Source: a virus (taxonomy: Duplodnaviria > Heunggongvirae > Uroviricota > Caudoviricetes). From it: DNA of 37,308 nucleotides. Made by a program: the position numbers and the translations under genes. The stretch's first letter is position 1, and every line of letters starts with the position of its first letter. Below the pieces are notes generated by a model. It saw only the letters and a program-made list of their open reading frames with translations, had not been told where the DNA came from and did not search any database. The stretch is taken from the IMG/VR virus record IMGVR_UViG_2684623059_000004; one strand, given 5' to 3'. Below are positions 2,622 through 29,547 of the stretch, piece by piece.

Positions 2622-2733
2622 ACCTGAAGTTGCCCTGAGAATGAAATTTTTTTGCACAAGCGCAGAACTTTTCTTCGGGGCATCAGTCTTAATTAGTGCC
2701 ACTGCTTTTCTTTGATGTCCCCATTTTGTGGAG

Positions 2734-2777
2734 CCCATCAACCCCGCCATTTAGGTTCAAGGTTGATGGGTTTTTTG
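2734..2777 (+). terminator. rho-independent terminator-like hairpin downstream of ybjL, near the prophage junction
   Basis: perfect 10-bp stem cccatcaacc (2734-2743) / ggttgatggg (2761-2770) followed by tttttt. Confidence 0.5.
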
Positions 2778-2856
2778 TTGCCTGATTTTTATGCCGTTTA
2801 AAATCATGATGTTAGAAGCATTGCTTTTTAATGATGGCGACAAAATGGCGGCAGCG

Positions 2857-25980: not shown

Positions 25981-27927
<1,947 letters not shown>

Positions 27928-28171: not shown

Positions 28172-28849
28172 CTAGAACGTGACAGCCTTGTCAAAGCCAG
28201 AAATAATTGTATAAGAAATAGACGAGTTATCAGCCTTGTTCACTTTGAACTTGGCACCTTTGTAAGCGATAACATCACTTCCCTTAGAATCTACAGAAAA
28301 ATCTGTTGTAAATGCTGCACGAGCCATATCGTTTGCAAATTCACGATAGGTGAACTTCATTACACCGCCTGCATTTCCATTGTATTCGATAGTCTTAACC
28401 AATGAATTACTCACTCGACACAGCCCATCAGGAACACGTTTGATAGAAATTTCTGATGCAGTATAAGAAGTGCCATTTGGCGGTGATATCTCATTTTTTG
28501 CAGCATCGTAACTAACATAATCAACATAGTTACCGATTTGCCCATAGAGATTTTTTAACGCAACAGCTTGAGGATTATGATAATTGCGGTAAATTCCATT
28601 CCCCTCACTGCAATATGTACCAGCAGCGATAGAAGACAATGCACCATTAGCCGCACCAAGTTCTAGTACGTCCGTTTTAAATCCAGTAGCAGATGTGATA
28701 ATGGGATCGCCCATGTAGGCGGTAGCACTTTGCCCAATAGCTGGCTTCACCACTTCAATAGCAGTGATATTTCGGTTAGAAGCATGTGGCACGCAACCAG
28801 TTAGGATTACAGCAAGAGATATTGGTAACGCTACATTATTAATTTTCAT
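28172..28849 (-). CDS. prophage lipoprotein at the P2 old/tin position
   Basis: signal peptide MKINNVALPISLAVILTGC with lipobox; start taken at Met19 of the longest ORF; own terminator. Confidence 0.7.
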   Translation of the reverse strand: MKINNVALPISLAVILTGCVPHASNRNITAIEVVKPAIGQSATAYMGDPIITSATGFKTDVLELGAANGALSSIAAGTYCSEGNGIYRNYHNPQAVALKNLYGQIGNYVDYVSYDAAKNEISPPNGTSYTASEISIKRVPDGLCRVSNSLVKTIEYNGNAGGVMKFTYREFANDMARAAFTTDFSVDSKGSDVIAYKGAKFKVNKADNSSISYTIISGFDKAVTF

Positions 28850-28962
28850 TTTTAGCCTATTATTCTTTTCTTGACAAAAAACAAGGCGATATCTGATTGA
28901 CATCGCCTCTCACTCATATGTAACCCTTTTTGATTAGTAAAAACAAGCGTCTATTGACAAAA

Positions 28963-29196
28963 TCAATGCAGCCAGCTGTCGTCTTCCCACACCTTCTGCA
29001 AAATTTTCATCACTTGTTTTCTTTCTTCGTCCAGTTGCAGTCCGGTCAGTTCCACACCGTTAGAGCTACCTTTACGGATACGGATTACCGTTTTGGGATA
29101 CAGGGGGCGCAGATTGCGGTAAAGCTCGGATTCAAGGGCGTCCAGGGTAGACTGGCTAATCTTCTGCTCTTTATCGATCATTATTTCAATGCGCAT
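28963..29196 (-). CDS. DinI-like protein
   Basis: 77 aa from internal Met (MRIEIMIDK...) with AGGTGA Shine-Dalgarno; C-terminal KILQKVWEDDSW resembles DinI. Confidence 0.65.
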   Translation of the reverse strand: MRIEIMIDKEQKISQSTLDALESELYRNLRPLYPKTVIRIRKGSSNGVELTGLQLDEERKQVMKILQKVWEDDSWLH

Positions 29197-29206
29197 AAAA
29201 GTCACC

Positions 29207-29395
29207 TCAACTGATGACATCCATTGAGCGGTTGTATTCGTGGGTTCTGATTTTTGCCATGAGTTCATCAGTCAATTCAGAAACCCACTGCAGAGCCAGC
29301 CCCTTCTCTTCATCACTACACTCACTAGCCGCTACAAGCTTAAGAAAAAAATCAATGCGCTGGAGCTTCAAAGACTCCAAAAAATAGTCCTGCAT
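29207..29395 (-). CDS. small protein, first gene of the LexA-boxed operon, possible Tum-like antirepressor
   Basis: 62-aa ORF with GGAGG 5 nt upstream of ATG; LexA box immediately upstream; function inferred from position only. Confidence 0.5.
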   Translation of the reverse strand: MQDYFLESLKLQRIDFFLKLVAASECSDEEKGLALQWVSELTDELMAKIRTHEYNRSMDVIS

Positions 29396-29437
29396 CTTTC
29401 CTCCTATGACACCACAAGCAATACTGTATACATAACC

Positions 29438-29457
29438 ACTGTTTATATTTACAGTAT
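29438..29457 (-). promoter_or_regulatory. LexA box
   Basis: ACTGTTTATATTTACAGTAT fits CTGT-N8-ACAG with AT-rich spacer; a half-match (TACTGTATACATAACCAC) lies at 29422-29439. Confidence 0.55.
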
Positions 29458-29547
29458 ATAATAATCTTACTGATGTAAAACGTTTTTTACGTTCATCGGC
29501 CTGATATGCCTGGTATTATTAAGAGCACGAATTGTTAACCCGCGTAA

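Follow-up and report, generated by a model that had tools for sequence, protein, structure and literature searches.

The window (the whole 37,308-nucleotide stretch of DNA analyzed) belongs to a Fels-2/186-type, P2-like prophage of Escherichia coli, and the region described here is its SOS induction module. Gene A (Pfam Phage_GPA; E value, 4e-126) ends at 29548 and is followed on the same strand by a putative LexA-repressed promoter, a 62-residue open reading frame (orf62) that starts at 29395, a DinI-like gene, and an intrinsic terminator (Table 1). The placement of orf62 after gene A is that found in 186, PSP3, and Fels-2. Both Fels-2 and DuoHS, a prophage of E. coli HS, shared 98% identity with the module DNA, and about 1,100 of 5,426 complete E. 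coli genomes contained matching DNA. Every element listed in the original prediction was present, including orf62 with an upstream GGAGG and the DinI-like gene; the LexA-box letters that it quoted (+ strand, 29438..29457, ACTGTTTATATTTACAGTAT) were read correctly, with the canonical 20-mer shifted one base to the left.

Table 1. Coordinates of the features of the SOS induction module and of the cI-int region in the window
Feature	Position	Strand	Basis or remark
Intrinsic terminator, 11-bp stem then UUGUUUUUUG	28875..28909	-	Ends the two-gene unit
DinI-like gene (tumB-like)	28963..29196	-	Pfam DinI PF06183, E value 4.6e-23
Small hairpin over the orf62 stop codon and the GAGGTG Shine-Dalgarno sequence of the DinI-like gene	29201..29218	-	-9.4 kcal/mol
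orf62, Tum-type antirepressor (tumA-like half of a split tum)	29207..29395	-	Homology to 186 Tum-N
Shine-Dalgarno sequence GGAGG of orf62	29400..29404	-	4 nt before ATG
Candidate LexA box 2 (CAGTGGTTATGTATACAGTA on the - strand; GTGG-N8-ACAG)	29422..29441		15.4 bits; 15-bp offset from box 1
LexA box 1 (TACTGTAAATATAAACAGTG on the - strand)	29437..29456		23.6 bits; begins at the first base of the -10 hexamer
-10-like hexamer TACTGT	29451..29456	-	Identical to the annotated -10 of 186 p95
-35-like hexamer TTTACA, tum promoter	29474..29479	-	Read from the sequence; putative assignment
cI, 186-type immunity repressor, presumed target of orf62	35291..35860	+	32% identical to 186 CI, E value 8e-38
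Second strong LexA box	36207..36226		23.7 bits; in TTGACA-17-AAAAAT spacer

Predicted LexA boxes and tum promoter

LexA box 1 had a perfect CTGT-N8-ACAG core and agreed with TACTGTATATATATACAGTA at 17 of 20 positions. A count of bare cores was rejected as proof of a LexA site because it was not above chance (one found in the window versus 0.45 expected; at least one in 36 of 100 shuffles), so a weight matrix and conservation were needed. The matrix was derived from a training set of 29 E. coli LexA boxes (12.7 to 27.1 bits). Box 1 scored above the best site of all 200 shuffles (best site per shuffle: mean, 11.8 bits; maximum, 22.0 bits), and the next unrelated LexA-like site in the window reached 7.5 bits. 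Judged as an enterobacterial SOS box, it had a perfect core and a score inside the range of proven boxes. Eight relatives, HS and Fels-2 among them, had the box unchanged, and each of the 15 related phage loci examined, including 186, PSP3, and distant relatives in which Tum was just 41 to 49% identical, had a strong LexA box ahead of its tum homologue.

The second half-match, noticed beside this site in the original prediction, was recovered as candidate box 2, which shares one base with the core of box 1. Its score lay within the training range, but one half-site was GTGG and not CTGT (the conserved C is missing). A box of at least 12 bits at the 15-bp offset was found in HS, Fels-2, Kp4860-7, Cartapus, 500465-1, ST13phi12.1 (18.4 bits), and ST437phi4.1 (16.7 bits); the equivalent fell below 12 bits in three relatives (813R9, Kp4845-2, and SEN8), and among the related loci compared, 186, PSP3, and ESSI-2 had none. 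Across relatives, the half-sites of box 2 were kept and the central 3 nt varied. LexA would contact box 1 directly and may also contact candidate box 2.

The TTTACA hexamer was invariant among 8 close relatives and stood 17 nt upstream of TACTGT, a layout that matches annotated 186 p95 (TTTGCC, 18 nt, TACTGT). As annotated for p95, box 1 starts exactly at the first base of TACTGT. A consensus promoter scan did not list this -10 because just 3 of its 6 positions fit TATAAT, which is likewise the case for the p95 -10. The intergenic DNA is AT rich, and no strong terminator was evident between gene A and the tum promoter, which, together with the 0.45 bare cores expected per window, would suit an operon that is constitutive or transcribed by read-through from gene A, its LexA-like sites being chance palindromes. 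We consider this extremely improbable and already contradicted: the full-site score beat all 200 shuffles, box 1 sits on the -10 exactly as the 186 p95 box does, and the strong box was kept in all 15 relatives though the flanks had diverged. Experiments on near-identical loci point the same way, as MX, a mutagen that damages DNA, raised the Fels-2 operon STM2726-STM2727-STM2728 by as much as 14.8-fold (PMC2225428) and induction of DuoHS is blocked by lexA(Ind-) (PMC12055606).

Products of the two genes

orf62 was identical at 61 of 62 residues to DuoHS tum (ECHS_RS04495, the 62-amino-acid open reading frame after gene A) and 98% identical to Fels-2 STM2728. Profile comparisons further indicated true, though remote, homology to the N-terminal half of 186 Tum (Tum-N). 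By direct BLASTP, orf62 aligned with neither 186 Tum nor PSP3 TumA, and shallow alignments gave only a weak hhalign match (25.8% probability; P value, 7e-4). Homology became clear when distant representatives from a search of 1.8 billion proteins were added to the alignments, with orf62 then matching the 186 Tum-N family at 95.1% probability (hhalign; E value, 3.2e-8; columns 3-44 on 3-44). BLASTP intermediates (P0272, P0266, and P0284) matched both orf62 and 186 Tum (1e-11 to 1e-19), and PHROG searches cross-matched (186 Tum to phrog_698, the family of orf62 itself, 2.4e-5; orf62 to phrog_1993, 0.0022). Identity to 186 Tum-N was about 21%; at this identity, and with no BLASTP match, the direct binding of orf62 to CI that 186 would lead one to expect is extrapolated over a large distance.

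Searches of Pfam and of PDB sequence profiles returned no match for orf62. Its AlphaFold2 model was a two-helix hairpin (mean pLDDT, 90), for which Foldseek against the PDB found generic helical hairpins, none with an E value of ≤0.001. RefSeq, phage records, and PHROGs list the antirepressor as a "hypothetical protein" or, mistakenly, as "levan regulatory protein"; the second label, carried by orf62 homologues in some records, has no support in profile searches. 186 Tum is labeled only as DinI. Treating phrog_698, phrog_8554, and phrog_1993 as a single family of Tum N-modules would put many records right.

The DinI-like call of the original prediction was borne out by a full-length Pfam match (81.8 bits against a cutoff of 24.2; profile positions 1-63 of 63), by phrog_189 (8.6e-30), and by the solved structure of E. 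coli DinI (1GHH; E value, 1.4e-6; residues 1-75). The acidic C-terminal helix (W-E-x-x-D-x-W) was represented by QKVWEDDSW, aligned to QETWESADDW of E. coli DinI. The protein shared 77% identity with PSP3 TumB; against the last 77 residues of 186 Tum, the figure was 43%. The hairpin over the orf62 stop codon was a modest signal (z, -2.1) in which only loop bases varied among the window, HS, and Fels-2; it may possibly couple the translation of the two genes. The terminator fold was stronger (-16.6 kcal/mol; z, -4.85; equaled by 0 of 200 shuffles) and lay at the same position as 186 t95a, an annotated partial terminator. The next open reading frame after the operon (243 codons) was considered as the equivalent of 186 orf97 and rejected (E value, 4.5; no similarity), the equal length being a coincidence.

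Proposed SOS induction and the presumed target of orf62

The SOS-tum arrangement is real but ordinary, having been described and deletion-tested earlier in a 98% identical prophage. DuoHS is no longer inducible by mitomycin C when tum carries an in-frame deletion or in a lexA(Ind-) background (PMC12055606), and Lemire et al. 2011 (PMC3121763) describe tum of Fels-2 and PSP3 as divided between two genes, one for the antirepressor and one homologous to dinI. The present analysis established which sequence elements are there, how strong they are statistically, how far relatives conserve them, and what the genes are homologous to; others, working on 97 to 98% identical loci, showed that DNA damage causes induction, that LexA must be cleavable, and that the 62-amino-acid gene is required. 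The original prediction had taken orf62 for a compact Tum-like antirepressor that makes the prophage SOS inducible. Each part of that interpretation holds, supported by the profile homology and by the published DuoHS and Fels-2 results, but the idea is not new, as the split tum was already set out in PMC3121763. The parallel that it drew with phage 186 is also correct: in the 186 record, gene A is immediately followed by the p95 promoter, a LexA site, and tum.

With high confidence, the whole is best explained as a DNA-damage switch, in which one promoter under LexA repression serves the genes for a Tum-type antirepressor and a DinI-like protein. During lysogeny, LexA of the host, sitting on the two abutting boxes, would shut off the promoter directly after replication gene A, with box 1 covering the -10 hexamer and the likely transcription start (predicted near 29444) and box 2 lying just downstream. 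DNA damage would activate RecA, LexA would cleave itself, and the promoter would turn on, giving a transcript of about 560 nt that would end at the strong terminator. The first product, orf62, predicted to be an acidic helical hairpin of 62 residues and the equivalent of PSP3 TumA, would act as the antirepressor, binding the 186-type CI stoichiometrically and taking it off its operators, upon which the lytic promoter would fire and the prophage would be induced. The second product, a separate DinI-like protein that corresponds to PSP3 TumB and to the C-terminal part of the fused 186 Tum, would presumably act on RecA filaments, tuning the strength or duration of the SOS response, and would be dispensable for induction. 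The SOS-tum module sets the timing with which prophages of this widespread type exit the chromosome.

The prophage copy in the window carries a retron, so induction would also govern the spread of this cargo. Beyond the terminator lie a lipoprotein-like open reading frame and the retron. An Rfam scan at the gathering threshold reported only RybB and no retron RNA.

ESSI-2-type phages have an orf62 homologue and a LexA box after gene A but no DinI-like gene there; antirepressor activity was reported in the upstream gene of PSP3 (a personal communication cited second-hand in PMC3121763); non-polar dinI deletions in the Gifsy prophages left induction unchanged (PMC3121763); and in the 186 record, the separately translated DinI-like product only "modulates" induction. 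It is very unlikely, in view of these, that the induction effector is the DinI-like protein, or both products jointly with orf62 alone merely accessory or chaperone-like. Joint action would fit the organization of 186, whose modules form a single polypeptide named after DinI in databases, and the single hairpin that holds both the orf62 stop codon and the Shine-Dalgarno sequence of the DinI-like gene; since translational coupling is possible, the DuoHS tum deletion may also lower expression of the DinI-like protein, and the two products are not strictly separated by it. orf62 is retained here as the probable effector.

CI is the presumed target of orf62 by analogy with 186, in which Tum is an anti-CI factor that works by sequestration and is expressed from the LexA-regulated p95 (PMC7708051); Tum-CI binding there is biochemically established (Shearwin 1998, as cited in PMC3121763 and PMC7708051). 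Compared with DuoHS, CI was 96%, Apl 100%, CII 100%, and Tum 98% identical. Elsewhere, an identical or 98%-identical Tum was found with CIs that were 38 to 55% identical overall (N-terminal domains, 64 to 77%; C-terminal domains, 24 to 43%), and Tum paired with CIs conserved only in the N-terminal domain was not described in the literature examined. The occurrence of an identical orf62 with very different CI and Apl but a nearly constant CII (94 to 100% identical) could mean that orf62, though needed for induction, acts on CII, Apl, or a host protein, and of tum, the DuoHS paper states no more than that it "inhibits pro-lysogenic regulators" (PMC12055606). Such a target is nonetheless highly improbable: orf62 is homologous to a CI binder, the CI N-terminal domains of the Tum-sharing phages contain long invariant stretches that would make a plausible docking surface, and physical linkage of the cII-A-tum block accounts equally well for the constant CII. 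With CI as the presumed target, either the specificity of this one Tum is broad or some of the pairings are non-functional. Fels-2 and DuoHS, which share the Tum, are both reported to be SOS inducible (PMC3121763, PMC12055606).

Outside the tum operon, a LexA box as strong as box 1 was found in the spacer of a promoter-like site (TTGACA-17-AAAAAT) located 25 nt upstream of the int ATG (36256). It was conserved in HS, Kp4860-7, and 813R9 with diverged flanks and would place int under common SOS control with tum. A literature search found no description of LexA-controlled int promoters in P2-like phages (the Phollow paper and preprint are without "int promoter"). The presence of one Tum with CIs alike mainly in the N-terminal domain suggests a broader reading, which we put forward tentatively and with rather more doubt than confidence: in the Fels-2 group, Tum may have a broad range as an antirepressor, acting on the conserved N-terminal DNA-binding domain of CI and cross-inducing heteroimmune prophages, and LexA may directly control a separate int promoter, licensing CI-independent excision. 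If this were true, one orf62 protein would lift the repression of several heteroimmune prophages at once, as in Gifsy cross-induction. The int LexA box and the pairing of one Tum with many CIs are the only additions made here to the published work on 186, PSP3, Fels-2, and DuoHS.

Comparison with known systems

The closest system, DuoHS (ECHS_RS04495 and its DinI-like neighbor ECHS_RS04500), has the gene order, promoter, and LexA box 1 of the window, and its DinI-like protein is 99% identical. It differs by three base changes in the center of box 2, by one T51S change in Tum (61/62 identical), and in its downstream cargo, which is a retron RT-Toprim gene in the window and another gene in HS. 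Fels-2 of Salmonella LT2 (STM2728 and STM2726.1, the "split tum") is 98% identical in DNA over the whole module, whereas its immunity region differs (CI, 38% overall, with the N-terminal domain at 69% and the C-terminal domain at 24%; Apl, 22%), its int directly follows cI, and no LexA box precedes int.

The Tum protein of 186 (146 amino acids, expressed from p95) is encoded after gene A behind the same -10 hexamer as in the window, likewise with a LexA box on it, comprises the same modules (antirepressor N-terminal half and DinI-like C-terminal half), and is followed by an equally placed terminator. In 186, however, the modules are fused in one polypeptide, the DinI-like part is also annotated as made separately from an internal GTG start, only one LexA box is present, and the N-module is only about 21% identical to orf62. 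PSP3, a Salmonella phage, has a split pair (TumA and TumB) with a LexA box upstream, as in the window, but its LexA box is single and its TumA is 22% identical to orf62 and belongs to phrog_1993, not phrog_698. The Gifsy operons (GfoA/GftA with a dinI homologue; PMC3121763) resemble the window in being LexA-controlled units of a small antirepressor and a DinI-like protein; there, the repressor is inactivated by binding and not by cleavage, and the antirepressors are able to act in trans on other prophages (PMC3121763). They differ in that dinI comes first (the reversed order), the phages are lambdoid, and the repressor family is unrelated.

Promoter and boxes of the tum operon

The window is a P2/186-like prophage of Escherichia coli with its regulatory genes at the right end (see table). 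The Dam methylase, replication gene A, orf62 (a 62-residue Tum-type antirepressor gene), the DinI-like gene, a lipoprotein-like open reading frame (ORF), and a retron-type reverse transcriptase lie on the minus strand, and cI, a 63-codon ORF, and int lie on the plus strand. Over the 700 bp around the tum operon, the DNA shares 98% identity with Salmonella phage Fels-2 and with many Peduoviridae of Klebsiella, Salmonella, and Escherichia; ~1,125 of the 5,426 complete genomes of E. coli searched have a match to the tum region.

Features of the prophage and its tum operon
Feature	Coordinates	Strand	Remarks
RybB sRNA	2701..2779	+	Rfam RF00110, 106.5 bits; host chromosome flank, left end of window
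RT-Toprim fusion, retron-type reverse transcriptase	25981..27870	-	PADLOC RT-Toprim_I-C, E 1.5e-217; Pfam RVT_1
Lipoprotein-like ORF	28172..28849	-	225 residues; signal LAVILTGC; phrog_1353, family without assigned function
Predicted terminator	28909..28875	-	11-bp hairpin and U-tract; -16.6 kcal/mol, z -4.85
DinI-like gene	28963..29196	-	Full-length DinI family member, Pfam 4.6e-23
orf62	29207..29395	-	GGAGG Shine-Dalgarno
LexA box 2	29422..29441		15.4 bits
Variable centre of box 2	29430..29432	-	GTA; most variable positions among eight close relatives
LexA box 1	29437..29456		TACTGTAAATATAAACAGTG (coding strand); 23.6 bits
-10-like TACTGT	29456..29451	-	First base is the start of box 1
-35-like TTTACA	29479..29474	-	Followed by 17-nt spacer
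Replication gene A	29548..31962	-	
Dam-type orphan DNA adenine methylase	31959..32876	-	PADLOC oMTase, E 8e-111; overlaps gene A start
cI	35291..35860	+	
63-codon ORF	35876..36067	+	phrog_6000, family without assigned function; between cI and int
Region with promoter-like site and int start codon	36203..36258	+	TTGACA/AAAAAT, 17-nt spacer
Second strong LexA box	36207..36226		CACTGGTTATACATACAGTA; 23.7 bits, equal in strength to tum box
int start codon	36256	+	Preceded by GGAGGG

The LexA 20-mer of the original prediction was found at 29438..29457, one base off the canonical site (box 1). Box 1 has the sole CTGT-N8-ACAG core in the window, which alone proves nothing, since 0.45 matches are expected by chance. 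As had been proposed, sites were scored with a weight matrix (symmetric, from 29 E. coli LexA boxes known from the literature; training range, 12.7 to 27.1 bits). Box 1 exceeded the maximum of 200 shuffles (22.0 bits; best-site mean, 11.8 bits), and the fourth-ranked site in the window (7.5 bits) fell far below the three tabulated boxes. Given its score, the half-match previously described beside box 1 counts as a probable second box (box 2, GTGG-N8-ACAG), whose core overlaps that of box 1 by one base. Colicin promoters typically carry abutting double SOS boxes that give tight, delayed induction, and boxes 1 and 2 may be likened to these by analogy.

Box 2 lies 15 bp beyond box 1 in the coding-strand direction, followed by the Shine-Dalgarno and orf62, as predicted. 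A 10-nt gap including GAGGTG separates orf62 from the DinI-like gene, and a small hairpin around the orf62 stop codon and the next Shine-Dalgarno (-9.4 kcal/mol; z -2.1, a modest signal) may couple their translation. The phage 186 record annotates p95, a LexA site, and tum, in line with the original prediction, and has the same design: a -35 hexamer, 18 nt, -10 TACTGT, and the LexA site from the first base of the -10, with tum and then the partial terminator t95a downstream, as in the window's order.

The matching region of 15 relatives was scanned with the same matrix. All 15 had a LexA box of 21 to 28 bits, ~20 to 85 bp ahead of the tum homologue, including ESSI-2-type phages in which Tum is 41 to 49% identical and no DinI-like gene occupies that position. 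Seven relatives had box 2 at the 15-bp offset with a score of 12 bits or more; they include ST13phi12.1 (18.4 bits) and ST437phi4.1 (16.7 bits), in which the sequences of both boxes are altered. Box 2 scored below 12 bits in three relatives and was absent from 186, PSP3, and ESSI-2. The 105-bp upstream region hardly varied among eight close relatives outside the three bases at the centre of box 2, whose half-sites (GTGG and ACAG) were fixed.

Identity of the operon products and neighboring genes

Pfam gave no match to orf62, nor did BLASTP against 186 Tum or PSP3 TumA; in a MAFFT alignment, it was 21 to 22% identical to both and shared the motif C-x6-(L/I)AL-x2-(I/V)(A/S)(E/D)(L/I). When 1.84 billion representatives were searched with a profile, 86 relatives were recovered, including intermediates (P0272, P0266, and P0284) that matched orf62 at 1e-16 to 1e-19 and 186 Tum at about 1e-11 by BLASTP. 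With intermediates included, the orf62 family aligned to the N-terminal module of 186 Tum (Tum-N) in exact register over residues 3 to 44 (hhalign; 95.1% probability, E 3.2e-8). 186 Tum matched phrog_698, the family of orf62 (2.4e-5), and orf62 matched phrog_1993, to which 186 Tum-N and PSP3 TumA belong (0.0022). The BLASTP intermediates, hhalign, and PHROG cross-matches establish homology and place orf62 in the Tum N-module family, as a divergent member. AlphaFold2 modelled the protein as a hairpin of two helices, 2-23 and 28-61 (mean pLDDT, 90), for which Foldseek returned generic hairpins only.

The DinI-like assignment held: the protein matched the E. coli DinI structure 1GHH (1.4e-6). Its identity was 77% with PSP3 TumB and 43% with the last 77 residues of 186 Tum, for which the 186 record additionally lists a product with its own start that "modulates SOS induction."

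The lipoprotein-like ORF lies directly past the operon terminator (Fels-2 counterpart, STM2726) and showed no similarity to 186 orf97 at the equivalent position. The RT-Toprim gene, presumably an Ec67-type retron, occupies a cargo slot that separates the tum operon from the head genes, where relatives have the portal gene, and is on the strand of the tum operon. An Rfam scan (gathering threshold) detected no msr/msd RNA in the window. The Fels-2 record annotates the methylase counterpart as similar to "retron EC67 DNA adenine methylase." The 63-codon ORF (E. coli HS counterpart, ECHS_RS23290) has a start resembling a signal peptide and several cysteines.

A LexA box before int and exchange of the immunity cassette

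The second strong LexA box occupies the spacer of the promoter-like site 25 nt upstream of the int start codon, suggesting that the int promoter is under LexA control. It is kept in the E. coli HS prophage DuoHS, in Kp4860-7, and in 813R9 despite diverged 813R9 flanks, and is absent in Fels-2-type relatives, where int directly follows cI. About 1,100 genomes, out of 5,426 complete ones from E. coli, contain the 161-bp stretch that holds it. No paper describing a LexA-controlled int promoter was found in the literature on P2-like phages.

The window's cI was compared with loci L006-L017. Tum (98 to 100% identical) is linked to a 98% identical gene A and a nearly constant CII (94 to 100%), and the CIs paired with that Tum are 38 to 55% identical overall, with Apl at 22% to 100%. 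The cI-apl cassette has therefore been swapped between otherwise near-identical phages, with tum retained. The CI N-terminal DNA-binding domain (residues 1-72) is 64 to 77% identical with long invariant stretches, and the remainder is 24 to 43% identical. Fels-2 and DuoHS, with such diverged CIs, are both reported SOS inducible. The conserved domain and the inducibility of both suggest that Tum recognizes the CI N-terminal domain, and it may act on several heteroimmune repressors (a correlation across seven phages). The literature found on these phages did not address this pairing of one Tum with differing CIs.

Mechanism and comparison with known systems

A DuoHS mutant with an in-frame tum deletion and a lexA(Ind-) mutant neither lyse nor make virions after mitomycin C (PMC12055606). 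DuoHS tum (ECHS_RS04495) is, in its RefSeq record, a 189-bp ORF straight after gene A, and its product is 61/62 identical to orf62; the result transfers to the window with little risk, because CI, Apl, and CII are 96%, 100%, and 100% identical. If the two genes are translationally coupled, that deletion does not strictly separate the effects of orf62 from those of the DinI-like gene; as a counterweight, ESSI-2-type phages keep the orf62 homologue alone. In Gifsy phages, dinI deletions had no effect (PMC3121763). The observation of a LexA box, orf62, and a DinI-like gene is confirmed, and its reading as an SOS antirepressor operon with a Tum-like orf62 is supported by homology and the published deletion of the near-identical DuoHS tum.

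For 186, Tum is described as a factor that counteracts CI by sequestering it and whose promoter, p95, is LexA regulated (PMC7708051); this scheme is the most likely mechanism here. LexA, presumably bound directly at the tum promoter, would open it upon cleavage; the antirepressor would titrate CI, probably by direct binding, so that the lytic promoter fires; and the DinI-like protein may tune RecA activity.

Treatment with the mutagen MX induced the predicted operon STM2726-STM2727-STM2728 in the Fels-2 carrier Salmonella TA100 (each gene p < 0.05; fold change, 2.6 to 14.8) (PMC2225428); the grouping of STM2726 with the other two hints at terminator read-through into the lipoprotein-like ORF.

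In practice the finding is useful chiefly for annotation, since nearly all records still label the antirepressor "hypothetical." According to Lemire et al. 2011 (PMC3121763), 186 Tum resembles a fusion of an antirepressor with DinI, and Fels-2 and PSP3 have tum divided into an antirepressor gene and a dinI homologue; the upstream PSP3 gene is credited as an antirepressor in a personal communication (Bunny et al. 2002, as relayed in PMC3121763). The system is already known, having been described in 186, PSP3, and Fels-2 and deletion tested in an E. coli prophage of 98% identity.
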